Below, one piece after another: positions 36,401 to 50,900 of a stretch of DNA of 64,000 nt. Under the pieces are notes generated by a model. The model was not told the DNA's origin. It did not search any database and saw only the letters and a program-made list of their open reading frames with translations. The translations under genes were made by a program, and so were the position numbers. This DNA comes from Acidobacteriota bacterium (GTDB lineage: Bacteria > Acidobacteriota > Aminicenantia > UBA2199): assembly GCA_030837085.1 (NCBI GenBank), contig JAUPLE010000150.1:3016-67015 (forward strand), in the 5' to 3' direction. Numbering within the stretch: position 1 is the stretch's first letter; every line of letters starts with the position of its first letter.

Positions 36401-36429
36401 AACATTTCTACAAGATTTTTATAATTCAT
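27415..36429 (-). CDS. Hybrid initiation megasynthase: FAAL - ACP - KS - AT - KR - ACP - sulfotransferase (ST) - C (3004 aa), Ols/CurM-like with C in place of TE
   Basis: FAAL motifs IAYIQFSSGSTGSPKG, LKTGDIGF, GRAKEIIFVNAQNVYP. ACP FFDVGGDST. KS TACSTSLVAIDLAC, EAHGTATSLGD, NIGHLNAAAG. AT FMFSGQGAQY, GYSFGE, YAGHS. KR YLVTGGLGGMG, SSMAAIFPLPGQTAYAAAN. ACP FFELGGDSLK. ST ILSPPRSGTTLL (5'-PSB loop) and IHLIRHPYGMIHS (3'-PB). C domain YPASVAQKKFF, RQESLRTSF, MHHIITDGYSM. Tail ...GNNEDFGF. Confidence 0.9.
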   Translation of the reverse strand: MNYKNLVEMFCSRRRQDIGITFIDSAEEKRFLSYDEIYLEAGAILFNLQSAGVKPGDQLVFQINDNRDFVIFFWACLLGKIIPIPVTLAANDEYMCKLFNIWRLLSRPYLITFEKHLETLKAFAVNNNYPDMIAQMEKSAMFIEKLHRTAGHGHIYIPDESDIAYIQFSSGSTGSPKGVVLTHKNLLTNIKAIIKGIKPPVEGDVFFSWMPLTHDMGIIGFHMVPYTADWNHYLMIPQLFIRRPHLWLRKIAETKSTMTVSPNFGYKYVLKHFEPDKYNQLDLSSLRLIVNGAEPISADVCQEFLNKFTPFGLKKTVIFPVYGLAEASLAVSFSEPEDEMVVVNVDRDSLSIGQKVTEREKGVKAISFVEVGTPIPDCFVRIVDEAGERVADRIIGGIEIKGENVTGGYYNNDEATTEAIRPDGWLKTGDIGFSREGRLVITGRAKEIIFVNAQNVYPHDIEREAEKLEGMDFEKIAVCGVYNEASQSDEIICFVVFKRNLEDFLPLVSALKKHIAEKMSIEIDKIIPVKIIPKTTSGKVQRYKLRKEYLDGMYNPVIRELSGLQNEITLSKLQLTKTEIRKIIAETWKHVLGKDNVGEFDNFFDVGGDSTRAVQIKGRLQEAIGKAIDDAVIFRYPTINALTDYLSTNEPDMKFAKLQRENLDLFCHDRYRIQERIKKYLINETGENSGRSGLDIAVIGMSGRFPGAGNIDDFWNNLINGIESITFFSQEELSACGIDQALLENTDYVRAKGVLENIEYFDAFFFGYSPQEAGEMDPQTRIFHLCLWEALEDAGYDPDKYRGLIGVYAGASPNPIWNSKPLLLGRISASEQFMDIQLLDKDFMATRLSYKLNLKGPSFNMYTACSTSLVAIDLACQGLLTAKCDLALAGGVSLSLPYKTGYLYEAGMLFSRDGHNRTFDEQASGTVFSDGAGIVVLKRLEEAMADGDHIYAVVKGSAVNNDGSRKVGYTAPALEGQAEVIAVAHQAAGIDPETIGYVEAHGTATSLGDVIEMKALTLAFQTQKTGYCAIGSVKSNIGHLNAAAGVAGFIKTVLSLYYCLIPPSLHFRKPNNRIDFENSPFYVNIRLKEWSKNDIYPSSPRRAGVSSFGIGGTNAHAVLEEAPPLGESSIGREWKILILSARTQESLDSAIKSFLEYLNRHPTMDLADIAYTLQVGRKSFQYRKMLLCSDNKNAIEIISSPKAGKIYTSDSQNQVKRIVFMFSGQGAQYVNMGLGLYRIERIFREEMDICFNVFQSIAGYDLKEILYPSENLDQAAKSVKKTEITQPLVFIFEYALAKLLLSWGIKPEVMIGYSFGEYTAACLSGVFSLEDALKLVILRGQLMQKMPKGAMLSVPLSMKKVNPFLNGELSLAIDNGASCIVSGTSNAIEAFENELKDKGYLSVRVNVSYAGHSTLMEPILAEFENEVRKTTLNPPGIPFISNVTAQTITAEEATNSQYWVKHMKDTVRFGEGIGELLKTPNSIFLEIGPGQDLCALVKNHENYTTEQRLVNLVRHEKKTVPDIYYLLNRLGHLWLYGIDIDWEKFYVDEKRRRVSLPVYNFQHQRFPLDVDYIHLKNRMEKYLETPMQKRSDIDQWLYIPSWKRTRLPGPLEPSAWDDPVGTILLFIDEGGLGNKIEMQLRQEGFRVLIVREGDDFTNLKEDEYTVKPAVTHDYDALFGKLRATGQLPHTIIHLWSVSVAGNGCLGLGEVERYLDKGFYSLLALAQALGKMNAGHHFQLKVVTNNAQDVIGGDLICPEKATLMGPVKAIAQEFSNIGCCLIDITLPESEVLVGQLMREFKIKTRDGHENYNQDKDIIIAYRNNHRWILAFEPVNMKKSGSLPAAGLREKGVYLVTGGLGGMGLILAEYLAVSVKAKLVLIDRVSLPGRDEWDNWLSSHPNEDKTGEKIRKIRELEASGAEVLLSCADVTDESQMQQVISQAQQHFGSINGIIHAAGIADGAMIMRRTRELSEEILAPKVMGTLVIHRLVQYYELDFFIFCSSMAAIFPLPGQTAYAAANAFLDAFAASRFFNSGTIAISINWDRWQNVGVSVIAEQKHKDLWGKAMEEGITPPEGIDVFRRILADPMPRVVVSTIDLEHMTDRFNASGMLSTDIDIVEEQSTAKPRHQRPELSVSYVEPGNEIEQKLVEIWQELLGIDRVGIHDNFFELGGDSLKGMKFVNRYNTLLNEIVHINIIFEAPTITELAGYIIKNYPEAAGAITGRPISPDSPGGEPGVDMEIIERVRHLLPSPPSLFETQSPANPPAIFILSPPRSGTTLLRVMLAGHPKLFAPPELGLLSYNTLNEVNFTLQSSIRALMEIKGCDVEEAGRMIREFQQRIMTTKQFYRVLQEGIGDRLLVDKTPDYSFSLEVLKKAESDFSNSLYIHLIRHPYGMIHSFEEARLDLLFSNQSTHDLSLSRRRIAEAIWFISHRNILEFLENIPQNRQHWIKFEDLVYDPYHCMEGICRFLNLEFHPGMIQPYKEQNRRMTDSTHSEGRMIGDVKFMRHKHIDPGVADNWRDHYHTDFLGDVTWKMAEKFGYKSIKSDRLSLEPVEKKEYYPASVAQKKFFIINEFENISETYNTFRYVPLSGKLNIARFENAWRALIRRQESLRTSFHLIAGQPVIKVHETADFEIEYVDLIESGNPEYEMKTIINKFRTPFDLTQPPLMRVKLVKMSGENHVMLFGMHHIITDGYSMEIIFEELVALYGGKQLPGLKLQYKDYAQWQHRFLEFRECKKQEVYWLEKFSGEIPLLNMPTDYPRPKSQSFEGEWIHFKLENHVTQNIHVLAEDTGATVYMVLLAAFNILLSRYTGQKDIIVGSPIAGRDLEELERVIGVFMNVIPMRTLIEEEKTFAGFLSSVKENLLMAFKNHLYPLGMLAEKLGIIKNLSRNPLNDVEFIMIRNNLSLLEVEGLKFVPTEFNVGTSPVDITLAVVESGNDFSFTLMYCTKLFKRETIEKFIDSYKEVLRTVTQNKDILLKSITVSTGLGEALPVFLGNNEDFGF
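28810..29652 (-). other. PAPS-dependent sulfotransferase (ST) domain, CurM/Ols-type, between ACP2 and the C domain
   Basis: PPRSGTTLL near aa 2271-2279 and RHPYGMIHS near aa 2389-2397 are the sulfotransferase PAPS-binding signatures; the domain is about 280 aa. Confidence 0.75.
34750..36429 (-). other. Fatty acyl-AMP ligase (FAAL) loading domain (about aa 1-560)
   Basis: The adenylate-forming core has no downstream CoA-ligase features and is followed directly by an ACP, as in lipopeptide and olefin-synthase loading modules. Confidence 0.75.
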
Positions 36430-36477: not shown

Positions 36478-39400
36478 TCAAAAACCGAAACCGATTTCGT
36501 CCGCAGGCACCATTCCGGAAGTTGCCACCCCCAGATCACTGGAAATGGAAATATCCTTCAAATAAATGTCATTGTTTTCCATCACAGAAGCAATAATCTC
36601 TTCTAAATAAACAATAAACCTCTTAACCGTTTCCTTTTTAAAGAGGCATTTCCGATAAAATAATATGAGGGCCAACTCATTATTATATTCCATACCCACC
36701 AACCCCAGATCAAATTTCGCCTGTATATTAACATCGATTTGCTTTTGATTAACCAAAAGTTCACTATATCTAGCTTTTTCGTCGCGGGAATAAAAAGTCA
36801 AAAATACATCAAATAACGGATTGCGCATCCCTGTTCTCGTTATTACCAACTTATCCACTAGTTCTTCGAATTGATAGTCCTGGTTAGCAAAGGCATCCAT
36901 CGCCCTCTTTTTTACATTTCCCAGGAACTCCCTAAAGGTTATATTTTCGGAGGGGAAATTCTTCATTACCAAAGTATTTACAAACATACCAACAATTTTT
37001 TCTAAATCCGCATGCCTGCGGCCCATTATCACGGTACCGATGTTTATTTCCTCCTGACCGCTCAGTTTAAACAGCAATACATTAAGCAAAGAAAGAACAA
37101 TCATAAACATTGTAACATTTTCACGTCTTTCCAGCCCCCTTATTTTTCCCAGGTCATTTTTTTCTATCACAGAGATTACGTAGTCTCCCTCAATATTTTG
37201 ATAATTGGACCTCTGGAAATCAGTAGCTAAATTCAGATGAGTCATATCTCCTTTGAACTCCGTTAACCAATATTCTTCTTGCTGTTTAAGAGCATTTCGT
37301 TGTTCCCTGCAATTTTGCCACTCAGCATAATCTTTGTACTGAATCCGCAGTGGAGGTAATTCTTCTCCCCGGCTCAAAGCCATACTATCATCCATTAATA
37401 TATAGTGAGAAATTTCATCAGATATCACATGATGCATGTCCACCATCAATATATTTTCTTTCCTCCCGGTTAAAATAAAGCCCACCCGAAGGAGGGGGGG
37501 GTAGTGCAAATCAAACGAGCGGATGAAAATTTTCATTATATCTTTGATCTTAGCATCAGCCGCTTCTACGGAAGAGATATCAAAATCTTCTATTTCAAAT
37601 TCGATTTTATGGAACTCATGAACCCTCTGTCGTGGCTGATCTTCTATTATTTCCAGGGAGGTTCTCAAGCTTTCATGCCGTTGGATCAGTTTTCTAAAAA
37701 CATCCTCCAATTTTTTCTTTTCCAGGTCTTTTTGAATTTTAAACACCTGGGGTACGTTGTAAGCAGTACTCTTCATGCTCAATTGTTGTAAAAAATACAT
37801 CCGTTTCTGTGCTGACGATAATGAATAATACTCCTTTTTTTCCACGGGATATATCGATAAATATTTATCTTCAGCGGAGTAACTGATATAATGAGCTAAT
37901 GCTTCAACTGTGGGCGTTTTGAAAAAGTCTGCCAGGGGCATTTTCACATGAAACTCCTTATGAATTTTTGCCAACAGTATGGCTGATCTTAACGAGTGAC
38001 CACCTATTTCAAAAAAGTTAGAATGGATGCCTATTAACTCTTTTTCCCTTTCCAGAACGTTAGCGTACATCTCGATCAACTTCTCTTCTATTTTATTTCT
38101 CGGTCCGATATATTGTTTTCGTATCTCCCCGTCAGGGATCGGAAGTGCCTCTTTATCTATTTTCCCATTACGAGTTAAAGGGATGTTATCCAAATGAACA
38201 AAAAAGGAGGGGACCATATAATGCGGCAATTTCCCGGACAAATATTCCCGCAATTCCATACTATCAAATGTTTTTTCTGTCCCCATTACAGGAACAATAT
38301 AAGCACAAAGGTAACAATCTCCATTCTCTGCTGTCCGGGCAACGACAACGGTTTCTTTAATGTTCTTATGTCTTAATAAATGACTTTCTATTTCCCCCAA
38401 TTCGATCCGAAATCCCCTGATCTTAACCTGGTTATCGAGCCTCCCAAGGAATTCGATATTTCCATCAGGAAGCCATCGGACCAAGTCACCGGTGCGGTAA
38501 ACTTTGTCACTGGTCGTAAGCGATTGGTCATTTGTGAATGTGTTGGGAATGAATTTCTCTCCTGTCATGTCCGGGTTGTTTAAATATCCCCTACCGACAC
38601 CTATCCCGGCGATATGTAATTCACCTGGAGCGCCCGGGGGTTGAAGCTTCCCGCCAGAGCAAAGGATATAGGTTCTCATATTCACCAGGGGTTTACCGAT
38701 GGGAATACAATCCCGCTGTTTCATGTCGCCAGAAATTATGGTATAAGAAGTGGTCACATCACAGCACTCGGTGGGACCGTAAACATTAGTGATGGAGGTT
38801 CCCCCGTGGCCAAATCCGGTGAAAAACTGTTTCACCAACTTAGTGGATAAAGCTTCTCCCCCGATAACGAACTCCTTTACCTGGGGTGGAGGTACGTCTT
38901 GTTCCAGGCATTCCGATAATATTCGCATATGGGCAGGCGTTCCATCCACAATATCTACCCTATACCGCCTGTAAAATTCCAATAAACCAAAACCATCCAA
39001 CCGGGTATCCTCAGGGACAATATGCAAAGAATATCCAGACAATAATACCGTAAATACTTGTTTTACCGAAGCGTCAAATTCAAAAGGAGAAACCAAGCAT
39101 ACCTTCAACTCATTATCGCTATAACGATGGTAGATTCTTTCCCGCAAACCATGTACAAGGTTATTTACATTTCGATGTTCGAGCAACACCCCTTTAGGTG
39201 TTCCGGTAGAACCGGAAGTAAAGAAGACGTAAGCTAAATTACTGGGCCGATTGACAGGCAGCGGATTGGGAACCGATTCAGCCGGTAGTACTGCCATGGC
39301 ATCCAGGAGCAGGACTTTCCTTAAGGCCGATTTCGCAACATCAGTACTCCCTGAACATTGTTCAAGGAAGGCAAGTCCGGGAACTTTTTTCAATACCTCT

Positions 39401-42162
39401 TTAGTGGGTAATTTCCCTTTATTTTCAATGACCTTCCCTATCAATTCACAAAAGGTGTTTTCACCTTCCCCCAGCACCACTAAGTCAATGTTACTGTCCT
39501 GCAAGATAGCTTCATAATCACTTGTAGCGTAGGGTCCGCCAACAATAATGGGCACATCGATGCCCCATTGTCTCACATTGGCAGCAGTTTTATGGAAAAA
39601 CTGGCGGTAAAAGGTTAAGGTACGGATACCGATCAAATCAGGTTTGAAATCCTCGAGTAGTAATTTCAATTCCCCGTAACTATCAAAATCAATGCGGGAT
39701 TTGGCTATTTTACCGTTAATATTTTCCCCATACTGCTCTTTTAAAACGGTCATGAGATAAATCAATCCCAACGGCGGTTCCACTACATCATAGAGCATAT
39801 TATCGCTCTGATGAGTAAAAAATTGGGATAAATCCAGGAGCAATACTTTCAATGCATTGGCTGCCGGGGCGAGGGAAGGAAAATATTGGCTCAATTTCTT
39901 ATTCATATCGGGGATGGCCACCTTCTCTTCCCCAAGGCACGACGCTGTCCCTAATTCTTGCTTGGAAATATCAATAAATTGCAGCAGATCGTCGAAGGTC
40001 TTAATATCAACCGGTAAATAACTGTTATACTTCTGGATAATTTCATCTTCGGTCAATAGTTTCATCTGGTACGGCAACACATGCAGTAAACGCTCCCGGG
40101 AAATGAAATATTCGTTGAAAAATTCTGCCTGGTACTTCAGGGTAAATGCTTTATTAAAGGGCAACGTATCGGGCAATTCATGATACGCCAGGTCGGAGGA
40201 ATCCACAATAGCCTGCCGGGAAATACCGTTTTCCAGGGCCAACTTTTCCATTTCGGTATTGGGATAAATCTTCAATACATGCACATAGGGAAAGTGGACC
40301 CACTTAAAGCTTTTAATGAATTCCAGGGTCATCATGGCTTCTGCTTCTGTCTCGGTAGGGAAGCCATGAATTGTATTAAGCTCCAAGATAACGTTGGGGT
40401 ATTTTTGGCATATGTACTCTACATTTTGACGGAACCGTTGGAGATTTAATTTCTTACCGATCAGTTCCTGGAGCCTGGCCGAAGCAGTTTCCAGTGCCAA
40501 TGCAATACGAACGGTCCCGGCTCTAACCATTAGGTCGATATACTCCTCGGTTAATATATCCCCTCGCAAACATAAAAAAAGCTGGAGGTCCAGGCCATTT
40601 TCAATAATTAATTCCAAGAATCTTCGGCTATTTTTCTGATTGACATTGAATACATCATCCAGAAAAGTAAACCGTTTTACCCCTATCTTGTAATAAAACT
40701 TCACTTCCTCGAAAAGATATTCTGCGGAATGAGCCTCATGGGTTTTGGGCCAAATTTTGTGGCAGAAGGCGCAATTATAAGGGCAGCCACGAGTTCCTAG
40801 CATAGCGATGTTATGTTTAACGAGGGATTGACCGATATAGCGGTTGTACTTCTCATAATCCACCAAGGATCTGTTCGCACGAGGTAACCGATCCAGGTTT
40901 TTAATCATCGGTCGTTTGGCAGTAATTGATACACTGCGGTCACCGGATTGGAGATTTTGCAATTTAGTAAACATAAACTTCTTTACAGCGTTATTGACTG
41001 TTACCAGGACAGGAGTATTGGCTTCATTCAACATTGTAGTGATCCGTTTCTCCGGGAATGCCGGATTAATCGGTAAATAAGCGCCCCCAGCTTTTAAAAT
41101 ACCCAGTATCCCCACTATCATCTCGATAGACCGATCTACCATGAGCCCCACGATACAATCAGAGGTCACTCCATTTGCTCTTAATTCACTGGCCAATTGG
41201 TTTGCCTTACCGTTTAAACCCAAATAGGTCAACTGCTGATCCTGGTATACAGCCACTACGGCATCCGGAGTTTTGTCCACCTGTTCTTCAAATAACTGGG
41301 GAATTGTCTTATCCCCGAGATACCCTGCAGTTATCGCGTCACCATTATTAAAATCAAAAAGCAATCGCTTCTTTTCCACTTCGGACAAAAACGAGATATT
41401 GGAAACAACCTGTTTTATATCCTTAAGCGCATTCTCGGCCAAATTGATAAAATGGTTCACCAACTGTATGATATAATTTTTGTGGAATAGACTGTTATCG
41501 TACAGGAGATTGCCCTCTATCAGATCTGCCTCCCGCCGGAAGCAAAAGTGGAGTTTTGTGCCCAATCCACTACCGCTGGTTTTACTATGAATATTTTCAA
41601 ATGAACAGAATATCTGAGATAAAGTAGTCCCAGGTTGAAATGAAACACCGCCGAATATATTTTCCATCAGATTATCAAAAGGATAATCCTGGTTTTCATA
41701 AGCATCCAGAAGCGACTTTCGGGTTTTTAGCAGTAAGTCGATGAAGGGAAGGTCCCTGTCAAGGGGAACGCGGATTAACAAGTAACGGTTTACAGTATCA
41801 CGTTTTACATTGAGCCTGTACAGGGGTGACACAACACTGATGTCCCGGCTTCCAGTGTAACGATAAATTAGCAATTTTACAATGGTGAGAAAAAAGATAT
41901 ATAATGAAAGATCGGAATTTTTACTAAATTTTATTAATCGCCGACACAAATCTTCCGGGAAACAAATGCCGGTTTTTCCTATCCCTCCCCGGGACTCGGG
42001 CGCTGGTACATTCCCGTCGACCGGAATCTCCGTTACTTCCATATCAGAAGTCAATGTATTCACCCAATACTCCCTTTGTTTTGCAAATTTGGGACTTGAT
42101 AGTAAAATATTCTCGTCGATCTTCAGAATCTTTTCAAACACCATTTTTTTCTCCTTTCGCAT
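36478..42162 (-). CDS. NRPS module Clobe - A[rSAM-B12 insertion between a2 and a3] - T - C (1894 aa), tail ...EIGFGF
   Basis: A1/A2 LTYLGLNGKANQLA and LKAGGAYLPIN. Then about 515 aa containing GCPYNCAFC plus a B12 Rossmann segment. Then A3 LAYVFFTSGSTGTPKG, A8 GRLDNQVKIRGFRIELGEIE. T FFEIGGHSL. C MHHVISDEISH. Confidence 0.85.
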   Translation of the reverse strand: MRKEKKMVFEKILKIDENILLSSPKFAKQREYWVNTLTSDMEVTEIPVDGNVPAPESRGGIGKTGICFPEDLCRRLIKFSKNSDLSLYIFFLTIVKLLIYRYTGSRDISVVSPLYRLNVKRDTVNRYLLIRVPLDRDLPFIDLLLKTRKSLLDAYENQDYPFDNLMENIFGGVSFQPGTTLSQIFCSFENIHSKTSGSGLGTKLHFCFRREADLIEGNLLYDNSLFHKNYIIQLVNHFINLAENALKDIKQVVSNISFLSEVEKKRLLFDFNNGDAITAGYLGDKTIPQLFEEQVDKTPDAVVAVYQDQQLTYLGLNGKANQLASELRANGVTSDCIVGLMVDRSIEMIVGILGILKAGGAYLPINPAFPEKRITTMLNEANTPVLVTVNNAVKKFMFTKLQNLQSGDRSVSITAKRPMIKNLDRLPRANRSLVDYEKYNRYIGQSLVKHNIAMLGTRGCPYNCAFCHKIWPKTHEAHSAEYLFEEVKFYYKIGVKRFTFLDDVFNVNQKNSRRFLELIIENGLDLQLFLCLRGDILTEEYIDLMVRAGTVRIALALETASARLQELIGKKLNLQRFRQNVEYICQKYPNVILELNTIHGFPTETEAEAMMTLEFIKSFKWVHFPYVHVLKIYPNTEMEKLALENGISRQAIVDSSDLAYHELPDTLPFNKAFTLKYQAEFFNEYFISRERLLHVLPYQMKLLTEDEIIQKYNSYLPVDIKTFDDLLQFIDISKQELGTASCLGEEKVAIPDMNKKLSQYFPSLAPAANALKVLLLDLSQFFTHQSDNMLYDVVEPPLGLIYLMTVLKEQYGENINGKIAKSRIDFDSYGELKLLLEDFKPDLIGIRTLTFYRQFFHKTAANVRQWGIDVPIIVGGPYATSDYEAILQDSNIDLVVLGEGENTFCELIGKVIENKGKLPTKEVLKKVPGLAFLEQCSGSTDVAKSALRKVLLLDAMAVLPAESVPNPLPVNRPSNLAYVFFTSGSTGTPKGVLLEHRNVNNLVHGLRERIYHRYSDNELKVCLVSPFEFDASVKQVFTVLLSGYSLHIVPEDTRLDGFGLLEFYRRYRVDIVDGTPAHMRILSECLEQDVPPPQVKEFVIGGEALSTKLVKQFFTGFGHGGTSITNVYGPTECCDVTTSYTIISGDMKQRDCIPIGKPLVNMRTYILCSGGKLQPPGAPGELHIAGIGVGRGYLNNPDMTGEKFIPNTFTNDQSLTTSDKVYRTGDLVRWLPDGNIEFLGRLDNQVKIRGFRIELGEIESHLLRHKNIKETVVVARTAENGDCYLCAYIVPVMGTEKTFDSMELREYLSGKLPHYMVPSFFVHLDNIPLTRNGKIDKEALPIPDGEIRKQYIGPRNKIEEKLIEMYANVLEREKELIGIHSNFFEIGGHSLRSAILLAKIHKEFHVKMPLADFFKTPTVEALAHYISYSAEDKYLSIYPVEKKEYYSLSSAQKRMYFLQQLSMKSTAYNVPQVFKIQKDLEKKKLEDVFRKLIQRHESLRTSLEIIEDQPRQRVHEFHKIEFEIEDFDISSVEAADAKIKDIMKIFIRSFDLHYPPLLRVGFILTGRKENILMVDMHHVISDEISHYILMDDSMALSRGEELPPLRIQYKDYAEWQNCREQRNALKQQEEYWLTEFKGDMTHLNLATDFQRSNYQNIEGDYVISVIEKNDLGKIRGLERRENVTMFMIVLSLLNVLLFKLSGQEEINIGTVIMGRRHADLEKIVGMFVNTLVMKNFPSENITFREFLGNVKKRAMDAFANQDYQFEELVDKLVITRTGMRNPLFDVFLTFYSRDEKARYSELLVNQKQIDVNIQAKFDLGLVGMEYNNELALILFYRKCLFKKETVKRFIVYLEEIIASVMENNDIYLKDISISSDLGVATSGMVPADEIGFGF
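39328..40875 (-). other. Embedded radical-SAM core followed by a B12-binding Rossmann domain (rSAM then B12 order) inside the A domain
   Basis: rSAM motifs GTRGCPYNCAFCHKIW (CxxxCxxC), GVKRFTFLDDVFN, ALETASARLQELIGKK, IHGFPTETEAEA. Then B12 motifs LLLDLSQ..EPPLGLIYLMTVLK, PIIVGGPYATSDYE, DLVVLGEGENTFCELI. Confidence 0.8.
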
Positions 42163-42231
42163 TTTTCAATGGCTACCCTCTACAAGGTTGTTGGGGAATA
42201 CTTACCCAACGCTGAAAACGGCTGCTTTATA

Positions 42232-45200
42232 TTAATAGTCGAATTCGGCCTCCAATTCAGTTGTGCGCTCCGAAGCAGACTGTACTACATCTACACAGCT
42301 ATAATCGTCACCCCGCATTTTTTTGATAAGCTCCTCTCGATCGGTTTCACTCAGGATGCATATCTCTGAAATTTTTTGCCTTGGATTAACCAGAACAGAA
42401 GAGACAATGGCCTTGAAATATTTGATCAACCGTGATATTGTTTCCGCCCTATATAGTTTGGTGCAGTACTGGAAGGTAAAATATAATTTTTCTCCTCTCT
42501 CGTTGGCAGTGAGAGTCAATTCGAATTTTGTTGTGTTATTCTCAAAGCCGATGATCGGAGCTTTCACTGCGACCTGGGATTGTGAGACTGGCAAAGGTGG
42601 TTCCTGTGGCACAATCTTACTCATATTTTCCATGGCAAAGACCACATCAAATAAGAGGTGGTGGCCGATATCCCTTCCCTGTGCTACTTTCTCTATCAGG
42701 TCTTCAAAACGGTAGTCCTGGTTTTCAAAGGCTTCCAGCGATCGTAACTTCACTTCATCAAGAAAATCGACGAAACGTTTCTCTCCTGAAGGAAAATTTC
42801 GCAGTGCTAACATGTTGACAAACATTCCAATGATCTTTTCCAGATCGGCATGCCCTCGGCCAGCCGTGGCAGTGCCCACAAGGATGTCTTCCTGGTGGGA
42901 AACGTGAAATAACAATATATAATATATGGACAGTAATACCATGAACAAGGTACTTTCTTCTTGCCGTGCCATTTCATTCAACGCCATTGTTATTTCAGCA
43001 TCAAGCTCGAACGCAATAACCCTTCCTTCGAAGCTCTGTAAAAAGGTCCTGGGATAATCAAGGGGCATTTTCAACCGGGGAATTTCTCCAGCTAACTGCT
43101 TTAGCCAGTACTCTTGCTGTCGTTTGAAAGCGTTGGTTTCGGACTGCTGATGTTGCCATTGGGAATAATCTTTATATTGGAGTTTTAAAGGAGGTAATTG
43201 GTTTCCCACATACAATGCGTTGTAATCCTGTTCTAATACCTGTTGAGAAACGCCATCCGATATGATGTGATGCATGTCTACCATCAGGATGTACCCTCCA
43301 TTCTTGGATTTTGTGATTCCCACTCTCAAAAGCGGCACCTGGGATAAATCAAAAGCCCGGACAAAACGTTGGATCCTTTTTCCAGCTTCCCGGGGAGAGT
43401 CCGATGAGTCGTAACCATCATCATATTGTTCTAATTCAATAGCGATGTCGTCGAATATCCGCTGAGCAGGTTCCCCATCGATCAATTCAAAAGAAGTTCT
43501 TAAGCTTTCATGCCTTTGTATTAATTTCTTGAAGGTATTCTTCAATCTATCCTTATCCACCTCACCTTCAAATACCAGGATTTTAGTCAGGTTGTAAGAG
43601 ATACTATCCGGGTTCATTTGCTGGAAGAAGAACAGTCTCTCCTGTGCAGGAGAGAGTGGATAGTATTCTTTCTTCTCCACAGAATCAATCGATAGGTATT
43701 TAGCTTTTTTATCTTTATCATTCCTAGCATCCTTCATTGTTATGTACCCGCTCAATCCCATTAATGTGGGTGTTTTAAATAACTGGACGAGGGGGATTTT
43801 CACGTCAAAGGTCTTGTGAATTTTCGAAATTAAGATGGTGGCTTTTAAGGAATGTCCGCCCAGATCGAAAAAATTGGCATTCAAACTAATGGTATTTTCA
43901 GCTATTCCCAGTACATCCGACCATATCTGTACTAGTTTTCTTTCTACCTCAGTCGTGGGGGGTATATACTCGGCTTTTACTTGTAAAGTCATCTTCCGCA
44001 ATCCTCGGGTGTCTATTTTACCACTGGCAGTGAGAGGCATTTTATCTACCTGGACAATGTAGGTGGGGATCATATAATTGGGCAATTTCGCACCCAGGCA
44101 GTCTCTAATTTCTGATGCCACTTGCAGTCTACTCGATACCACATAAGCACAGAAGTTTTTATCTCCCCTTTCATCTTCTTTTACCAAAACTACAGCCTCT
44201 TTTATATCTTCCATTTCCCGGAGGTGTTTTTCAATCTCCCCCAATTCAATGCGGAATCCCCTTATTTTTACTTGCTGGTCCACACGACCCAGGAATTCAA
44301 TATTCCCATCCGGCAGCCATCGGGCTTGATCTCCGCTTCGGTACATGATCGCTCTTTCTACAAATGGATTAGGTATAAATTTTTCAGCAGTCAACTGAGG
44401 CTGGTTCAAATATCCCCGAGCCACACCTTCTCCTGAAATGCAAAGCTCTCCCTGACCACCGATGGGCACCGGATTGAAATCATTGTCTAGTATATACAAC
44501 CTGTAATTCATCAAAGGTTTTCCAATGGGTATCCGTTGATTCAATGTAATTCCGTCGCATAGATAAAGGGCCGCGTTGATGGTAGTTTCTGTAGGACCGT
44601 ATATATTGAGAATACTCTCTGTTCTAAAAGTCTCTTTTAGCGCGACATAGAGCTCAGGGCTGAAGGTATCACCCCCCACAAACAAGTATTTTATCCAAAT
44701 CTTATCCTTTTCTATATTCTCTAGAAGCACCTTCATGAAGGCGGGAACGATATTCAATATGTTGATTTTGTTATCATGGATAAAGGGCCATAGTTTTAAG
44801 GGATCTTTCTTGACCTCTTCGCTAACCAGGAAAATTTTCGCACCAGTGGTTAGTGCAGAAAACAGATGCATCACCGAAACATCAAAGGTAATGGCTGCCA
44901 GCAGTAGATAATTGAAAGAGGCGTCCAGTTGGAACTTTTTCTTCAGACCTGTCAATTGATTGACTATATTACGGTGTTGGATCAGGGCGCCTTTGGGAAT
45001 ACCTGTGGAGCCGGAGGTGTAAATGATATAAGCAAGGTCATTGGAATTATTAATAGGTTCCGGGTTCTGATTGGATTCCCCATACAGGATGTCCGCAATG
45101 CGATCCGACAAAACCACTTCTCGGCACCTCTGCCGAAGTCTCGACTTTTCATCTTTTTCCAAAAAGGCGATTCCCTGGATATTCTTCAATACCTCGTCAT

Positions 45201-47943
45201 CCGGTAATTTTCCCCCGTTGTTCATGATTGCGGTCATCAACTCCGCCATGGTAATCTCGCCTTCCTCCAAGACAGCAAGATCGATATTAGTATCTTGCAG
45301 CATAATGTCGTAACTGCTGGTCGCGTAAGGTCCACCGGCAATAATAGGCCCATCGAAACCCCATTGACGAATTAAAGCGAGGCTTTTGTGGCAAAAGTTC
45401 CTGAAGTAATTCATACTACGCACGCCAATAATATCGGGTTTGAAATTTTCCACTAGTGCCTTCATCTCGGCATAGTTATCGAAATCTACCTGGGATTTAG
45501 CTATCTTTCCAGTAATCCGTTCCCCAAAGATTTTATTCAAATAGGTCAACAAATACATCAGCCCCAAAGGCGGGTCTACTACATGGTACATCTCCAGTCT
45601 TTCATGTGAAAAATGCTGCGATAGATCCAGTAACAGCAGACGTGTGGAGGAAGGATTATTTTTATGTACGGGGAAATATTGCCTCACTTTTTCATTAAAA
45701 TTTTCTACTTTCCCGTAATCTTCGGGTAAAAACTCCCCTTTGATCTCATCCCTGGCGATGCCGATATAATTAAGCAAGTCTAAAAAAGTTTTGATATCTA
45801 CCGGGAGGTAACTGTTGTACTTTTGAACCAATTCATCTTCTGTTAGCATAGCCATTTGATTGGGCAGCACATTTCGCAATCGTTCTTTGTTCAGAAAAAA
45901 TTCTCCCAGATACTCTGCCTGACATTGGCGAGTAAAACTCTCCGAGAAGGGCAAGGTATAAGGTAGTTCATGGTATCCCAGGTCCATTGATTTCACAATA
46001 GATTCCTCAGAGATGCCGTGCTCCATGGCAAATCGAGCCATGGCGGTGTTGGGGTAAATTTTTAATATGTGCATATAGCCGAAAGGAAGCCAGCGGAAAC
46101 TTTTTATAAATTCCAATGAAGCCCTGGCTTCTTCTTCGGTCTCAGTGGGGAAACCGTGCATAATTTGAACTCCCAGTATAGCCCGTGGATAGTTTTCGAT
46201 AATATATTCGACATTCCTATGCAGCCTTTCGATATTCACATTCTTGCGGATCAATTTTTGCAGCCGGGGGGAGGCGGTCTCCAATGCCAGGTCCATTGTA
46301 ACTGCTCCAGCTTCCATCATGAGGTCGATAAAATCCGGCGTCAGGATATCCCCCCGGATGCCGTTGGGATAGTGCATGTGTATTTTTAATTTGTTTTTGA
46401 TCACCAATTGGTAAAATTTACCGATTTCCTTTTTATTGAAATTAGGCAGGTCATCGGTGAATCCAAATCGCCGAATGCCCATATTGTAATACATATTGAC
46501 TTCCTCGAAAAGGTTCTCGCCTGAGCGCAGCGAGTATTTATCGGGCCAGATTTTAAAACAATAGAGGCATTTAAAAATACATCCCCTACTGAATTGAACT
46601 GTAATGCTGTTTTTAACCATGGATTGTCCGATATAAGGATGATACTTTTCATAATCCACCAATGAACGATTGGGGAACTGCAGTGTATCTAGGTCCATCA
46701 CCTGAGGTCGTTTAGGGGTAACGATTTTTTTACTACATCTTCCTTCAAAATTCTGAAAATTGATATACTTAAATTTACAAATCAGTTCATCTTTGGTTAG
46801 TAATAGAGAGGCACTGCTGTCATCCAGCATAGTGAGGCTTCGTGCTTCTGGCAAATCTGCGCTAATAGGTAGATAAGCCCCCCCGGCTTTTAGAATTGCC
46901 AGTATGCTCACCACCATATCCAAGGAATTATCCATCAGGATGCCTGCAATTTTGTCTGATCCGAGCCCTCTTTTTCTCAACATTCGTGCCAGCCGATTTG
47001 CCATCTCATTTAATTGGTTGTAAGACAGGCATTGAATTCCATCCGTCGCCACAACAGCGATTTTGTGGGGTGTCTTTTCCACCTGCTCTTCAAATAAGAG
47101 ATGAAGGGTTTTCTGATTCGGGTAGTCAGCATCGGTACGATTAAAATGAAACAAAAGTTGATTTCGTTCTTCTTCTGAAAGAAAATTTACAAGGGATAAT
47201 GGGACATTAACCCCAGGCAACGCACGGTTCAATAAATGAATTAAGTTAGAAATAATCCCTTGAATAGTACTTTTCCGATAAACCAGAGGATTGTACTCTA
47301 CCTTCCCTTCAATACTCCCTCCATCTACTCGGAGAAAAGAAAAAATCAAATGAAGGTGGAGATGAAGGCGTTGCAAATATTTTGGCTCATGAATATTTTC
47401 AAGTAGTACCACTGTATCAAATAACCGGAAATCCCCCTCAGCGGCAGGTATATTCAACTGTTCTGCCAAAATCTCCACCGGGAAATTCTGGTGTTCCACT
47501 GCCTCTTGAAGGGTCTCTCTTACTCGCAGCAGGAGATCCTTAAAAGTCATGCCATCACTCAACTGTGCCCTTACAGCCAGGAGTGTATTGATAAACTCGC
47601 GATCAGCTTCCTGCTTATAGATGGGCGTTCCGACAATGATATCGTTTATTCCTGTATATTTATTTAATAATTGCATCAGGCCTGCCAGCAAAAGAATATG
47701 TAGTGTGTAATCATTGCCGCCGCAGATATTCATTATACTGGACGTCAGAGAGTCACTAAATTTAAAATCTACTTCCTCCGGTTCTTTGGGTTGATACCCG
47801 GGGACACTGTGTTTTATCACAAAATCATATGGAAAACTGCTCTTTATCCATTCGCCAGCCAAATGCTTTAACCAATAATTTTTTTCTTTAAGATTCTGAT
47901 TGGCTGCGATCAATTGCTCTTCTGAATAATATATACTTCTCAT
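42232..47943 (-). CDS. NRPS module Clobe - A[rSAM-B12 insertion between a2 and a3] - T - C (1903 aa), tail ...ELEAEFDY; paralog of 36478..42162
   Basis: A1/A2 LSYNQLNEMANRLA and LKAGGAYLPIS. Insertion with SRGCIFKCLYCFKIW and B12 segment. A3 LAYIIYTSGSTGIPKG, YRSGDQARW, GRVDQQVKIRGFRIELGEIE. T FFDLGGHSLKA. C MHHIISDGVSQ. Confidence 0.85.
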   Translation of the reverse strand: MRSIYYSEEQLIAANQNLKEKNYWLKHLAGEWIKSSFPYDFVIKHSVPGYQPKEPEEVDFKFSDSLTSSIMNICGGNDYTLHILLLAGLMQLLNKYTGINDIIVGTPIYKQEADREFINTLLAVRAQLSDGMTFKDLLLRVRETLQEAVEHQNFPVEILAEQLNIPAAEGDFRLFDTVVLLENIHEPKYLQRLHLHLHLIFSFLRVDGGSIEGKVEYNPLVYRKSTIQGIISNLIHLLNRALPGVNVPLSLVNFLSEEERNQLLFHFNRTDADYPNQKTLHLLFEEQVEKTPHKIAVVATDGIQCLSYNQLNEMANRLARMLRKRGLGSDKIAGILMDNSLDMVVSILAILKAGGAYLPISADLPEARSLTMLDDSSASLLLTKDELICKFKYINFQNFEGRCSKKIVTPKRPQVMDLDTLQFPNRSLVDYEKYHPYIGQSMVKNSITVQFSRGCIFKCLYCFKIWPDKYSLRSGENLFEEVNMYYNMGIRRFGFTDDLPNFNKKEIGKFYQLVIKNKLKIHMHYPNGIRGDILTPDFIDLMMEAGAVTMDLALETASPRLQKLIRKNVNIERLHRNVEYIIENYPRAILGVQIMHGFPTETEEEARASLEFIKSFRWLPFGYMHILKIYPNTAMARFAMEHGISEESIVKSMDLGYHELPYTLPFSESFTRQCQAEYLGEFFLNKERLRNVLPNQMAMLTEDELVQKYNSYLPVDIKTFLDLLNYIGIARDEIKGEFLPEDYGKVENFNEKVRQYFPVHKNNPSSTRLLLLDLSQHFSHERLEMYHVVDPPLGLMYLLTYLNKIFGERITGKIAKSQVDFDNYAEMKALVENFKPDIIGVRSMNYFRNFCHKSLALIRQWGFDGPIIAGGPYATSSYDIMLQDTNIDLAVLEEGEITMAELMTAIMNNGGKLPDDEVLKNIQGIAFLEKDEKSRLRQRCREVVLSDRIADILYGESNQNPEPINNSNDLAYIIYTSGSTGIPKGALIQHRNIVNQLTGLKKKFQLDASFNYLLLAAITFDVSVMHLFSALTTGAKIFLVSEEVKKDPLKLWPFIHDNKINILNIVPAFMKVLLENIEKDKIWIKYLFVGGDTFSPELYVALKETFRTESILNIYGPTETTINAALYLCDGITLNQRIPIGKPLMNYRLYILDNDFNPVPIGGQGELCISGEGVARGYLNQPQLTAEKFIPNPFVERAIMYRSGDQARWLPDGNIEFLGRVDQQVKIRGFRIELGEIEKHLREMEDIKEAVVLVKEDERGDKNFCAYVVSSRLQVASEIRDCLGAKLPNYMIPTYIVQVDKMPLTASGKIDTRGLRKMTLQVKAEYIPPTTEVERKLVQIWSDVLGIAENTISLNANFFDLGGHSLKATILISKIHKTFDVKIPLVQLFKTPTLMGLSGYITMKDARNDKDKKAKYLSIDSVEKKEYYPLSPAQERLFFFQQMNPDSISYNLTKILVFEGEVDKDRLKNTFKKLIQRHESLRTSFELIDGEPAQRIFDDIAIELEQYDDGYDSSDSPREAGKRIQRFVRAFDLSQVPLLRVGITKSKNGGYILMVDMHHIISDGVSQQVLEQDYNALYVGNQLPPLKLQYKDYSQWQHQQSETNAFKRQQEYWLKQLAGEIPRLKMPLDYPRTFLQSFEGRVIAFELDAEITMALNEMARQEESTLFMVLLSIYYILLFHVSHQEDILVGTATAGRGHADLEKIIGMFVNMLALRNFPSGEKRFVDFLDEVKLRSLEAFENQDYRFEDLIEKVAQGRDIGHHLLFDVVFAMENMSKIVPQEPPLPVSQSQVAVKAPIIGFENNTTKFELTLTANERGEKLYFTFQYCTKLYRAETISRLIKYFKAIVSSVLVNPRQKISEICILSETDREELIKKMRGDDYSCVDVVQSASERTTELEAEFDY
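45124..46671 (-). other. Embedded radical-SAM core followed by a B12-binding domain inside the A domain
   Basis: CxxxCxxC encoded at 46558-46581 (revcomp gga tgt att ttt aaa tgc ctc tat tgt = GCIFKCLYC). rSAM motifs GIRRFGFTDD, ALETASPRLQKLIRK, MHGFPTETEEEA. B12 motifs LLLLDLSQ..DPPLGLMYLLTYLNK, PIIAGGPYATSSYD, DLAVLEEGEITMAELM. Confidence 0.8.
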
Positions 47944-47965: not shown

Positions 47966-50900
47966 TTAAAAATTAAAATTTACCTCCGGCATATTAACCT
48001 GAGCCGTCTCCAGCCGGTGAGAAACTTTGATGTCTTTTAGTTTAATATTTTTATTTTCAGTCACAATACGAGAAATTTCTTCATAATGTTTGGCAAATCT
48101 CTCAATAGTTTCCCTTTTAAATAACTTTGTACAATATCTTAATGTAAAATGAACAACCTCAGAAATTTCATTAGCATGAATAATAATATCAAATTGTGTG
48201 GTCTTCACCTCTATAGGATAGAGACTAAAAACCAAATTACCAAGTCCCGGTCCCTCTTTGGGTACATTTGAATTCTCGACATAAATATTATGGAGGGTAA
48301 AATGAGTATCAAATAATACCTGCCGTCCGGCATCCCGCTGGATACCGAGCAGGTTAACCAGTTCATCGAATTGATAATCTTGGTTTTCATAGGCTTTTAA
48401 TGCATTGGTTTTTACTTCTTTTAGAAAATCAAGAAAGGTAATTTCTCCGTAGGGGTGATTACGCATAGCCAATGTATTCACAAAAAATCCGATAACATGC
48501 TCCAGGTCTACATGGGGACGCCCCGCGCTGGAACTTCCCACCACTATATCTTCCTGCCCGGTGTATTTATACAAAAGGATATTATAAATAGCTAATAATG
48601 CCATGTAAAGGGTGGCCCCCACTTTTGAGGCAATTTCATAAATGTCCGCTATTAGATTTTTATCTAGGACAAATATGATGGTATCTCCTTCAAAGCTCTG
48701 GACCTTCTGCCTAGGGTAATCGGTAGATAAATTGAGCGTCGGGATATCACCGGAAAAGACATTTAGCCAGTATTCTTCTTGCTTTTTGAGAACACCGGAT
48801 TCTCTTAGATTATTTTGCCAGATGGAAAAATCTTTATACTGGATTCTTATAGAGGGAAGTTCCATTCCGGCAAACAATGATATAAATTCTCTGATATATA
48901 GCTGGAATGATGTCCCGTCACTAATGATATGATGCATATCGTATATTAACAGATGGTTCTCTTCTGCCAATTTTAACAGCCCCACCCTCTGCAAGGGAGC
49001 TTTACCCAGATCAAAAGGCTGCACAAAAGCATTGATGATGTCTTTGATTTGCTGGTTTGAAATGGCGTGGATTTCGCTGTTTGCGTCTATCTGGGTAATT
49101 TTTAAACCGACACTTTCATGCACTCTCTGTACCGGATGATGATCCACCATTTCAAAGGAAGTCCGAAGCAACTCATGCCGTTCTATCATTCGATTAATTG
49201 TGCTCTCTAAGCATTCATAGTCTAGGGGACCATCAACTTGATACACCCCCGGGATATTATCACTGGTTGTAGTCTTGATCTGACTTAACAAAAACATGCG
49301 CATCTGTGCGGAGGATAATGGATAATATTCCTTTTTTTCTACCGGCTGAATCGAGGTATATATCTCTTCCTCCGATCCCATCAAGTACCGGGATAATTCT
49401 CTTATAGTTGGAGTTTTAAACACTTCTCCCACAGGTAATTTCATATTTAATTCTTTATTTACCCTTGCAGCCATTATCGTGGCGTTTAACGAGTGCCCAC
49501 CTAGTTCGAAGAAATTGGAATCGATGCCGAAGGTATTTTTTTCCTTCCCCAGCAATGCAGACCATATCTTCATGAGTGTTTCTTCAACATCATTCCGGGG
49601 AGCTACCAATTCCTTCCTTGTTTCTAATCCAGGTTCCGGCAGTGCTTTTATATCAACCTTACCATTTGGAGTTAATGGCAACCGCTCCAGCGAAATAAAA
49701 TACATTGGGATCATATAATCCGGTAATTCTTCCCGCAGGTATTCCCTCAGTTCTTTGGATAAAGAGCCTGTATCCGGCATCCTATTATTTACTTCAAATG
49801 TATATTCAACTCCATTAAACAGCGCTTCGTAAAATTGTTTCATGGAAATATCTTTCCTTTCGAGGTTCCCGCTTGATCCGGGAGAATAGATCATATACGC
49901 AGGCCGATCCGGCCGGATTTCAGTGGGAATTTCGATCATATTGGGAGTATCGTCTTCCTTTTCCATTTCTTCGATATGGGTTATATTAATAATGGCTATA
50001 TTCATATTAACTCTATTTCTCAATTTTTCCGCTGTGTCCACCCAATCATCATTGGTTACTATAATTCGACTTTCGGAATCTTCAAGGATATTAGTCAATT
50101 CTTCCAGGGAAGAAGAAGTATCTAAATGAACATATACCTTACCGGATTTCATCGCTCCAACGGCTCCAATTGCCAGGTGAGTATCCTGGTTGACTAGTAG
50201 TGCAATGGTTTCCAGTTTTTCTTCTTCTCTTTTTTCTTCCTGGATATAAGTGACCGAATGGGCTTTTTCCCTTTGTTCTTCAAGGGCTTTTCGCATTTCC
50301 ATACCTCTTGAACCACACACCGGGCAATCGGGATCCGGTTCTATTTTAAGCTCTTCCAGGAAATTCCCTCTCCAACCGATTTCCCAATCAAATCCCTGCT
50401 CTTTACATAGCCTTATGAAATGATCACTGAAAAGATGAGTCATTGCTTTATATCCTGGAGTAAAAGCCAGGTCAGTGGCGGCACCTCTTTGATTAAAATA
50501 AAAAAATTTGTTATAAGCCGGTTCTTCAAATCCCAATAAAATTTTCAATGCTTCATTTACTACTACTCCAGTACTGATGAAAAGGGATGTTGATACGACA
50601 GGAAGGGGGTTTTTACTATAATTCGCGACATAATGTTTCATCGCATTAACTATAGTTTCCAGCTTTGCCTTATCGAATAGGCAGTGATAACATGGAGTAT
50701 GGGGTGAATGTAATACCGCCGCATAAGCATTAATATCCGTCATAGATATGATCAAATGAGGAATTTGTTTAACAATTGCACATTCAGATAAGATGAACTT
50801 ATCTGCCGGGCCATCGAACATATCGAAAATAATGGCCGAATCTCCTACTAGTTCAAATACGTTTTCACGGGTTAGTTTCTGGGTGCATGGTACTACCTTA

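Follow-up and report, generated by a model that had tools for sequence, protein, structure and literature searches.

A permuted radical SAM and B12-type unit embedded between motifs a2 and a3 of two consecutive NRPS adenylation domains

Introduction

What is a radical SAM (rSAM) unit doing inside an adenylation (A) domain? The question is raised by two consecutive NRPS subunits, here called A and B, that are encoded in a 64,000-nucleotide stretch of bacterial DNA analysed as a whole (the window). Three sites of A-domain insertion are recognised, a2-a3, a6-a7 and a8-a9 (PMC8341866). The inserts treated in that 2020 census are class-I methyltransferases only, and a 2024 review (PMC11355689) adds Ox and KR domains; radical SAM and cobalamin are mentioned in neither. 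The author of an earlier note on this DNA knew of no described cis-embedded B12-radical-SAM unit, and indeed no description of an NRPS-embedded rSAM domain was found in the full-text literature, these two papers included, in which subscription journals are thinly covered, so that absence is not proof.

Results

Both subunits are encoded on the minus strand, as are all the features given below. Subunit A (36478..42162, 1894 aa, ending in ...EIGFGF; ORF, translation, Pfam and motif map) and subunit B (42232..47943, 1903 aa, ending in ...EAEFDY; ORF, Pfam and motifs) are intact, with unbroken reading frames, and share one layout: a half-C domain, A(a1-a2), an insert composed of an rSAM core, a helical bundle and a B12-type Rossmann domain, A(a3-a10), T and C. 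Both are elongation subunits, and the cluster to which they belong is a large NRPS/PKS hybrid. In subunit A the N-terminal ~280 aa (41323..42162) form the C-terminal half of a C domain, without HHxxxD; aa 28-169 align by BLASTP to residues 185-330 of the subunit's own full C domain, and Pfam finds there a second Condensation stretch. The N-terminal part of the A domain follows (aa 285-396, 40975..41310; motif map and model) with a1, LTYLGL, and a2, LKAGGAYLPI. After the insert, the A domain resumes (aa 946-1345, 38128..39327; Pfam and motifs) with a Glu-like code, DAKDVGVDV(K), and the T (PP-binding) domain (37885..38085; Pfam) and a full C domain with HHVISD (36535..37836; Pfam and motif map) complete the subunit. 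In subunit B the corresponding parts, located by motif map, Pfam or both, are the A-domain N-part with a1 and a2 (aa 280-391, 46771..47106), the A-domain C-part with a3 to a10 and an unassigned code, DVMNFGIIN(K) (43984..45126), the T domain (43741..43941) and the full C domain with HHIISD (42328..43671).

The earlier note had proposed that both A domains are split after A2, and the motifs bear this out: LKAGGAYLPIN and LKAGGAYLPIS are followed, 625 aa (subunit A) and 624 aa (subunit B) further on, by a normal a3, LAYVFFTSGSTGTPKG and LAYIIYTSGSTGIPKG, respectively. In the four uninterrupted A domains of the window in which both a2 and a3 could be located, the only ones used for this comparison, the spacing is 79-102 aa. 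Motifs a1, a2, a3, a5, a7, a8 and a10 were all located in both interrupted domains, together with the T serine and the HHxxxD of the C domain, so the A domain is otherwise complete as had been claimed. The insert had been put at about 515 aa; it is indeed large, and its refined size is slightly larger, 549 aa in subunit A (aa 397-945, 39328..40974) and 548 aa in subunit B (aa 392-939, 45127..46770; Pfam and profiles).

The expected domains are nested as predicted. Pfam placed Radical_SAM (PF04055) between two AMP-binding stretches in subunit A (aa 457-616, 40315..40794, E 1.8e-19) as well as in subunit B (aa 450-613, 46105..46596, E 8.9e-20). The cluster motifs lie at 40762..40785 (CPYNCAFC, within GCPYNCAFC, with C460, C464 and C467 as its Cys triad) and 46558..46581 (CIFKCLYC, within GCIFKCLYC), and the other rSAM motifs that had been quoted are also present (GVKRFTFLDD and ALETASARLQ in subunit A, GIRRFGFTDD and ALETASPRLQ in subunit B). 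The B12-type Rossmann domain of subunit A (aa 771-934, 39361..39852) carries PPLGLIYL, IGIRTLT, GGPYATS and GEGE, the latter within DLVVLGEGE, and scores 46.5 bits with Pfam B12-binding, above the cutoff of 32.1. Its counterpart in subunit B (aa 791-902, 45238..45573) scores 27.7 bits, below that cutoff, and keeps PLG, GGP and EGE (PPLGLMYL, GGPYATS and DLAVLEEGE). The spacing of PLG, GGP and EGE resembles the corrinoid-binding signature. AlphaFold gave confident models in which the two parts of the A domain come together as one fold around the insert (pLDDT ~95 for the A-domain N-part of subunit A), and both A-domain halves align to PheA in the model with a target TM of 0.76. Each of the two A domains thus keeps its core motifs while a foreign catalytic domain separates two of these, at the recognised a2-a3 site; this foreign domain matches Radical_SAM and B12-binding only, and none of the insert types described so far (class-I M domain, KR, Ox/MOx).

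We then looked at the relation of the insert to class-B (B12-binding) rSAM enzymes. It has both the CxxxCxxC rSAM core and the Rossmann-type B12-binding domain of that class, and the latter is not N-terminal to the rSAM core: the native order is rSAM then B12, and class-B profiles become colinear with the insert only after in-silico re-permutation. The insert is thus a circular permutant of the canonical class-B architecture, in agreement with the affinity and the reversed order read from the letters by the earlier note. None of the curated class-B families (ApyD, PhpK, KedN5, MgmA, TsrM-type, RiPP C-MT and others) reached its cutoff, all scores being far below; the best was 110 bits (123 after permutation) against a cutoff of 750 bits. 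The idea of a circularly permuted insertion held for the permutation itself but not for its tie to the insertion: it is a family-wide trait, and since the order rSAM-then-B12 is also that of stand-alone homologues (540-580 aa), it was neither made by the insertion nor is unique to it. As a result of the permutation, the unit starts and ends at what was once the junction between the B12 and rSAM domains. Judging from the canonical fold, its two termini should therefore be close neighbours, a geometry that would be well suited to insertion into a loop of a host. We are aware of no earlier natural example of a circularly permuted class-B rSAM fold.

A search for homologous inserts, as had been suggested, returned a large NRPS-associated family, with 931 clusters (50% identity) at E<=1e-30 in public data. 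The unit is hence not a rarity of this cluster. Its members are mostly embedded at a2-a3, and are also found before T, after C or as stand-alone proteins in NRPS operons; the family is confined almost only to NRPS contexts, and the design with rSAM and B12 domains inside an A domain is common in uncultured, apparently anaerobic lineages. The one cultured bacterium with a stand-alone homologue is [Clostridium] polysaccharolyticum (FOHN01000005). No dedicated curated model exists for it in NCBIfam or Pfam, and the hits inspected bore only generic source names. When a genome collection was scanned with the family alignment, the matches listed were mostly generic B12-rSAM proteins, only two (L004 and L005) being close. 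The two modules, called paralogous in the earlier note, are not a recent pair: the inserts of subunits A and B are 51% identical to each other, less than to many metagenomic homologues (up to 62-79%), the closest relative being a partial protein, 79% identical, from the MAG GCA_024227675.1.

This recurrence bears on whether a misassembly or a frameshift might have fused separate rSAM and NRPS genes. We found no evidence supporting such an artefact, and an exact second copy of the window's proteins was absent from the collection searched. Against it stand two independent reading frames, each unbroken over ~1,900 aa, and insert junctions that recur in more than 100 independently assembled proteins, including one from a complete 9.1-Mb genome record and one from a Clostridiaceae MAG in which normal and interrupted modules lie within one polypeptide. 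As the interrupted architecture recurs across hundreds of independent assemblies, neither misassembly nor a frameshift accounts for it, and we consider the chance of such an artefact negligible.

Alignment of 55 family members, only ~56% identical, showed that the three cluster Cys, the SAM-region motifs and the Rossmann motifs are invariant. This conservation argues against an inert insert, that is, a structural, docking or redox/oxygen-sensing module only modulating A-domain activity. Such a role would agree with the former proposal that a2-a3-interrupted A domains are inactive (PMC8341866), and two relatives, P0004 and P0015, retain just an a1-a2 fragment or a degenerate a3, so that parts of such fusions can decay; but the host A domains of subunits A and B keep all core motifs and the unit persists as a stand-alone protein in NRPS operons. 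We thus regard an inert insert as improbable.

The identity of the host residues was then considered. The interrupted A domains have Thr-, Ile-, Leu-, Val-, Asp-, Glu/Gln- and Pro-like codes, and never a Gly code. Since the hosts vary in specificity and Gly is never among them, the target would be a position common to many residues, most likely C-beta. Grouping the units by host specificity gave a weak signal (59.5% vs 57.9% identity, with the nearest neighbour in the same group for 51 of 92 units), which fits co-inheritance and substrate adaptation alike.

These data led us to weigh what the unit might catalyse. We think it most plausible, at about an even chance, that it is a cobalamin-dependent radical C-methylase acting on the carrier-tethered residue, most likely at C-beta. 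In such a mechanism the A domain would activate an amino acid and load the downstream T domain, whose phosphopantetheine arm would offer the aminoacyl, or possibly peptidyl, thioester to the embedded unit; presentation of the thioester by the T domain has been shown for class-I methyltransferase inserts. SAM would be cleaved reductively at the [4Fe-4S] cluster, and the resulting 5'-deoxyadenosyl radical would take a hydrogen atom from an sp3 carbon that is not activated, probably C-beta. Methylcobalamin would supply a methyl group to the substrate radical, cob(II)alamin would be reduced and then re-methylated by a second SAM, and the C-methylated residue would be condensed by the downstream C domain.

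It is possible, if rather less probable, that the unit is an active rSAM enzyme that carries out another anaerobic radical step on the tethered residue. The step might be a BchE-like beta-hydroxylation or oxidation, an AprD4-like dehydration or desaturation, or the formation of a C-C or C-X bond, and the Rossmann domain would then be a cobalamin-free scaffold or one not engaged in methyl transfer. However, the B12-domain rSAM enzymes characterised so far are for the most part methylases, and so are most of the families matched here (ApyD, PhpK, KedN5, MgmA, TsrM, CysS, TokK, HpnR and RiPP C-methyltransferases). In the 55 members conservation is as strong in the Rossmann domain as in the rSAM core, PLG, GGP and EGE being invariant. 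The AprD4 model (NF033070) gave 61 and 40 bits against an equivalog cutoff of 500 bits, which places the unit outside the AprD4-type diol dehydratases.

An rSAM epimerase of the PoyD/YydG type, replacing E domains by taking the C-alpha hydrogen of any loaded residue, has in our estimate a smaller chance still than an inert insert. E domains are no rarer after interrupted modules than after normal ones (12/85 vs 8/87), and such an epimerase would thus be redundant. No conserved Cys beyond CxxxCxxC, which could act as hydrogen-atom donor or auxiliary cluster ligand, was found in the 55 members; EpeE came out much lower in rank than the B12-rSAM enzymes, and a B12 domain is present throughout the family, whereas the rSAM epimerases known to us lack one. 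The unit thus does not fit the PoyD/YydG type, and this reading was rejected.

Two further loci of the window carry B12-like domains. Subunit C (47966..55630), the next module upstream, has a B12-rSAM insert unlike those of subunits A and B (52766..54733); it lies before a1, is in the canonical order, with the B12 domain followed by a divergent rSAM domain (CEMNCLYC), and is accompanied by a ThiF insert. The best match of this insert type hints at an Aminicenantes-like origin of the DNA. Pfam gave no support at E<=1 for a segment resembling RRE/PqqD that had been picked by eye at the start of the first insert of subunit C. In the same operon, a small ORF (17488..18429, ending in ...DDGAWEF) encodes a B12-like Rossmann domain on its own, lacking an rSAM core, and gave weak matches only.

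Discussion

Returning to the C-methylase reading, we think it a little short of an even chance that these units represent a hidden large class of nonribosomal assembly lines, in which an in-line permuted cobalamin radical-SAM domain serves as a general tailoring domain and alkylates unactivated carbons of many carrier-bound residues (Thr, Ile, Leu, Val, Asp, Glu/Gln, Pro). Most of these assembly lines would belong to uncultured lineages (Aminicenantes/Acidobacteriota, Clostridia, Bacteroidales, Desulfobacterota), which seem to be anaerobic. If so, such tailoring would parallel, on the NRPS side, the C-methylation of polytheonamide-type RiPPs, and the permutation would be what made the class-B rSAM fold insertable into an A-domain loop. 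Every A-domain insert described to date carries out a polar reaction, be it ketoreduction, oxidation or SN2 methylation of an N, O or S atom, and a cis-embedded radical SAM/cobalamin unit would add functionalisation of unactivated C-H bonds to the on-line reactions of NRPSs. It would also explain how heavily C-alkylated nonribosomal peptides could arise in anaerobes without oxygenases, and would give a portable "C-methylation domain" for NRPS engineering. A 931-cluster family with no curated model or known product is a sizeable block of unexplored chemistry. Finding the substrates of orphan B12-rSAM enzymes is a long-standing problem, and it is directly tractable here because the host A domain defines the carrier-tethered substrate.

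Among known systems, the class-I methyltransferase-interrupted A domains (TioN, TtbB; families 3 and 4 of Lundy et al. 2020, PMC8341866) share the same host domain and the same a2-a3 loop. All ten core motifs are likewise kept, the A domain is predicted to fold around the insert, and the insert would by analogy act on the residue after T loading. In contrast, the TioN/TtbB-type insert is a 260-270-aa Rossmann-fold SN2 methyltransferase, whereas that described here is a ~549-aa Fe-S/cobalamin-type radical enzyme, expected to act on an unactivated carbon rather than on N, O or S, and its activity would depend on anaerobic conditions and a reductant, and probably on cobalamin as well. The class-B (cobalamin-dependent) methylases PoyC/PoyB, DscE (discodermin), CysS (cystobactamid) and ApyD, whose substrates are peptides or NRPS intermediates, belong to the same superfamily as the unit by sequence and fold, and two of them, DscE and CysS, are enzymes of nonribosomal pathways (PMC12858407, PMC7966384); the CysS crystal structure 9n1b carries a pantetheine-bearing ligand. 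These are separate proteins with an N-terminal B12 domain, whereas the unit is permuted and cis-fused inside an A domain. AprD4, a diol dehydratase of the radical SAM type that also has a B12-like domain, is ~20% identical to the unit; unlike the unit, it has its domains in canonical order, acts on an aminoglycoside and is not associated with NRPSs. Finally, Mmp10, an rSAM enzyme with a C-terminal cobalamin-binding domain, has the same rSAM-first, cobalamin-second order as the unit.

Two adenylation domains are split by a radical SAM-B12 unit

A single NRPS/PKS operon fills the window on the minus strand, to which all window coordinates below refer. Subunits A (36478..42162, 1894 aa) and B (42232..47943, 1903 aa), two of its NRPS proteins, are encoded by uninterrupted ORFs. 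An earlier note had described, in each, an A domain split between core motifs a2 and a3 by radical SAM (rSAM) and B12-binding domains. All the motifs quoted there are present in the translations, and a2 was mapped to aa 356 (A) and 351 (B) and a3 to aa 981 and 975, a spacing of 625 and 624 aa, compared with 79-102 aa in the uninterrupted A domains of the window with both motifs located (n=4). In Pfam, Radical_SAM (E-values of 1.8e-19 in A and 8.9e-20 in B) followed by B12-binding (cutoff 32.1 bits, exceeded in A with 46.5 but not in B with 27.7) sat between two AMP-binding stretches in both subunits, and AMP-binding_C, PP-binding and a full Condensation domain came after. Refined boundaries place the inserts at 39328..40974 (A; aa 397-945, 549 aa) and 45127..46770 (B; aa 392-939, 548 aa). 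Taken together, the ORFs, motifs, a2-a3 spacing, Pfam order and insert limits confirm the observation; an artefact is a minor alternative.

AlphaFold gave confident models. The insert of subunit A, modelled from 55 family sequences (pLDDT 89.2, pTM 0.88), forms a single compact unit of rSAM barrel, helical bundle and Rossmann domain. In the model of the A[insert]-T segment (1156 aa; pLDDT 88.2, pTM 0.76), only the two junctions and the a8 hinge were of lower confidence. Because PheA (1amu) and 4d4i/4d56 align over the A-domain parts on either side of the insert, with target TM-scores of 0.76-0.78, the two halves are predicted to reassemble around it.

The unit is a circular permutant found in a large family

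The cobalamin-type (class-B) affinity proposed earlier held: within NCBIfam, all matches of the isolated insert were to B12-binding rSAM families (ApyD, PhpK, BchE, ladderane-lipid rSAM, BzaD, HpnJ, AprD4, KedN5 and MgmA), and each lay far under its cutoff (110 bits against 750 for the top one). The rSAM part aligned to profile positions ~165-390, the region after the N-terminal B12 domain in canonical enzymes, and the C-terminal Rossmann part to N-terminal positions (17-153 of KedN5). We then re-joined the Rossmann segment in silico ahead of the rSAM segment and re-ran the profiles. Judged by these alignments, the unit truly is a circularly permuted version of the class-B architecture, since ApyD, BchE, BzaD and KedN5 now matched as one unbroken stretch from profile position ~14-21, with higher scores (123 vs 110, 110.6 vs 96.8 and 73.4 vs 59.9 bits). 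Given the canonical fold, both termini of the permuted unit lie at the former B12-to-rSAM junction and should therefore be adjacent, as insertion into a loop requires.

Homologous inserts proved numerous. A word-indexed search returned 686 relatives (the top 120 being 47-79% identical to the query), and an exhaustive search of 1.84 billion representatives gave 931 clusters at E<=1e-30, of which the top 150 were nearly all proteins of 1,400-7,548 aa, ~10 having two copies. The relatives, generically named "AMP-binding protein" or "radical SAM protein" at NCBI, come from Aminicenantes, Acidobacteriota, Clostridia, Bacteroidales, Deferrimicrobium, Desulfobacula and Deltaproteobacteria MAGs. Among 267 retrieved proteins and the two subunits of the window, we located 250 units: 100 cleanly between a2 and a3, 17 at a2-a3 with an a2 missed by the search pattern, 78 in stand-alone proteins of 530-600 aa, 13 with a2 upstream in proteins that then end, and 7 directly before a T domain. 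Individual arrangements included A10-[unit]-T-C (P0080), unit-ACP (P0087), C-[unit] (P0088) and proteins of ~720 aa with an a1-a2 fragment only, the unit and a helical tail (P0001, P0004, P0010, P0020 and P0026). Because of these last proteins, some stand-alone forms may, speculatively, be escapees from NRPSs. The embedded unit is much wider in scope than had been seen from this cluster. Since the stand-alone members share the rSAM-then-B12 order, the permutation is, across the sequences compared, a family-wide trait; the earlier suggestion of a permuted insertion thus stands for the permutation itself, not for its origin in this insertion event.

Stand-alone members also occur in NRPS operons. 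At locus L001, three follow in tandem a 3,949-aa NRPS/PKS that itself has an embedded unit, and at L004 one polypeptide has both an interrupted A domain and a normal one. The end of an NRPS/PKS operon in the cultured [Clostridium] polysaccharolyticum (FOHN01000005.1, 10001..12981) encodes a stand-alone permuted protein of 546 aa, which shares 49% identity with the query, and directly after it a canonical-order B12-rSAM protein (441 aa); this locus is therefore a tractable system for product discovery.

Other features of the operon

Subunit C (47966..55630), the next NRPS subunit upstream of subunit B, has two inserts in one A domain. The first (52766..54733), between the A-domain start (FEEQVEKTPDKTAV) and a1, comprises ~190 aa of no assigned function, a B12-binding domain (Pfam, 42 bits) and a divergent rSAM (CEMNCLYC; TIGR04190, 110 bits). 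Unlike the A and B inserts, it is thus placed before a1 and in canonical B12-then-rSAM order. It belongs to a rare family of 16 hits, and the closest of them (63% identical), likewise NRPS-embedded, lies in the complete Candidatus Aminicenantes genome CP070627.1. In the second insert (49706..51445), between a8/a9 and a10, a ThiF/MoeB-type E1 adenylyltransferase domain (Pfam, 163 bits) divides a pseudo-A N-fragment that has a degenerate a3 (YSPGSSGNLE); to our knowledge, no NRPS A domain with a ThiF insert has been described. The code of the subunit C A domain, DLTKVGHIG, is presumably Asp-like. Between two NRPS genes, the ORF 17488..18429 (313 aa) encodes a B12-like Rossmann domain by itself, with GGGVFDD and IIGEGE and only weak matches to Pfam and TIGR03975. 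No rSAM core was found in this protein, and its C-terminus, ...DDGAWEF, resembles the NRPS subunit tails.

Such short acidic-aromatic tails are found wherever the next protein begins with a half-C domain (...YWL.KLSGE...). In the window they read EFDF, ELEF, NFNF, EFDY, GFGF, DFGF, AFEF and AWEF (ORFs at 63506, 55645, 47966, 42232, 36478, 27415, 18660 and 17488), and they also occur at L085, L001 and L004. They are possibly a docking code recruiting trans-acting units, because NRPS subunits and stand-alone rSAM proteins have matching tails at L085 (two NRPS subunits and one rSAM protein, all ending DFAF) and L001 (NRPS and stand-alone unit, both LENE). The N-terminal ~280 aa of subunits A and B are the C-terminal half of a C domain (41323..42162 and 47119..47943), and ORFs starting at 55630, 25961, 17454 and 63477 begin likewise, despite the complete C domain already ending the preceding subunit; the half-C could serve as a docking receptor or be what remains of a C:A platform.

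A diaminobutyrate-2-oxoglutarate transaminase-like gene (25995..27374; 478 bits, below the 671 cutoff) adjoins an NRPS (18660..25961) whose two A domains both have the code DIWEITADD, which suggests supply and incorporation of 2,4-diaminobutyrate. The hybrid subunit at 27415..36429 (3004 aa) has, in order, an acyl-AMP-ligase-like AMP-binding domain, KS, AT, KR, ACP, sulfotransferase, second carrier and C domain; a CurM-like sulfotransferase is unusual midway along a lipopeptide assembly line.

Constraints on function

Nine-residue specificity codes were taken by alignment to a GrsA fragment, the control giving the expected DAWTIAAIC. The interrupted A domains had 57 distinct codes (n=125), including DFWNIGMVH (23 cases), DGFFLG[VM]VY (14), DAKD[LI]GVVD (7), DAWFLGNVV (5) and DLTKVGHIG (5), which, by the Stachelhaus table, we take to be Thr-, Ile-, Glu-, Leu- and Asp-like, respectively; presumed Val-, Gln-, Asn- and Pro-like codes were also present. 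Subunit A has DAKDVGVDV, presumably Glu-like, and subunit B the unassigned code DVMNFGIIN. Unit identity was about equal within and between host specificity groups (59.5% and 57.9%), and this, with the variety of codes, indicates that the chemistry is not tied to one side chain. Gly-type codes were found in none of the 125 interrupted A domains but in 4 of the 110 normal ones from these proteins (p=0.047), and the target is most likely a position common to all non-Gly residues.

Over 55 sequences with a mean identity of 56%, 41 columns are invariant (CxxxCxxC, PLG, GGP and EGE among them), which argues that the unit is likely catalytically active; an inert insert is a minor alternative. A role as epimerase, also minor, is unlikely, since E domains are no less frequent after interrupted modules (12/85) than after normal ones (8/87) and the family alignment contained no invariant cysteine beyond the cluster triad.

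Class-B methylases have peptides and NRPS intermediates among their substrates. PoyC acts on Val C-beta. Others act on discodermin (DscE; PMC12858407) and in cystobactamid assembly (CysS, whose structure 9n1b carries a pantetheine ligand; PMC7966384), and M-domain inserts modify a residue only after its attachment to the T domain (PMC8341866, PMC11355689). By analogy, we propose that the embedded unit would C-methylate the T-tethered residue, as the earlier note had suggested, a reading that we judge to be about as likely as not. The aminoacyl (or peptidyl) thioester would enter the rSAM active site, the 5'-deoxyadenosyl radical would abstract a hydrogen, most likely from C-beta, and methylcobalamin would deliver the methyl group, giving in subunit A a C-methyl-Glu-type residue. 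The main rival, doubtful in our judgment, is a different radical reaction, like those of AprD4 or BchE: among solved structures AprD4 lies closest, and the unit, which has the class-B rSAM parts in non-canonical order, reaches no curated-family cutoff.

Comparison with described interrupted A domains

In a 2020 census, bacterial interrupted A domains fall into seven families. Every one carries a class-I M domain, 260-390 aa long, and neither radical SAM nor cobalamin is mentioned anywhere in the text (PMC8341866); a 2024 review adds only Ox and KR inserts (PMC11355689). Even a stand-alone rSAM methyltransferase beside an NRPS was called "an unusual enzyme combination" in a 2025 Entotheonella paper. 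In keeping with the novelty claimed earlier, we found no description of an NRPS-embedded rSAM-B12 unit in the full texts searched, which included few subscription-journal papers, so that an earlier report is possible. Subunits A and B have the defining anatomy of an interrupted A domain and belong to the same kind of system, a2-a3 being a known site; whereas the described inserts are of class-I M, Ox or KR type, here an rSAM and B12 unit occupies the site, and it is this type of insert, with its class-B parts in an order other than the canonical one, that appears to be new.
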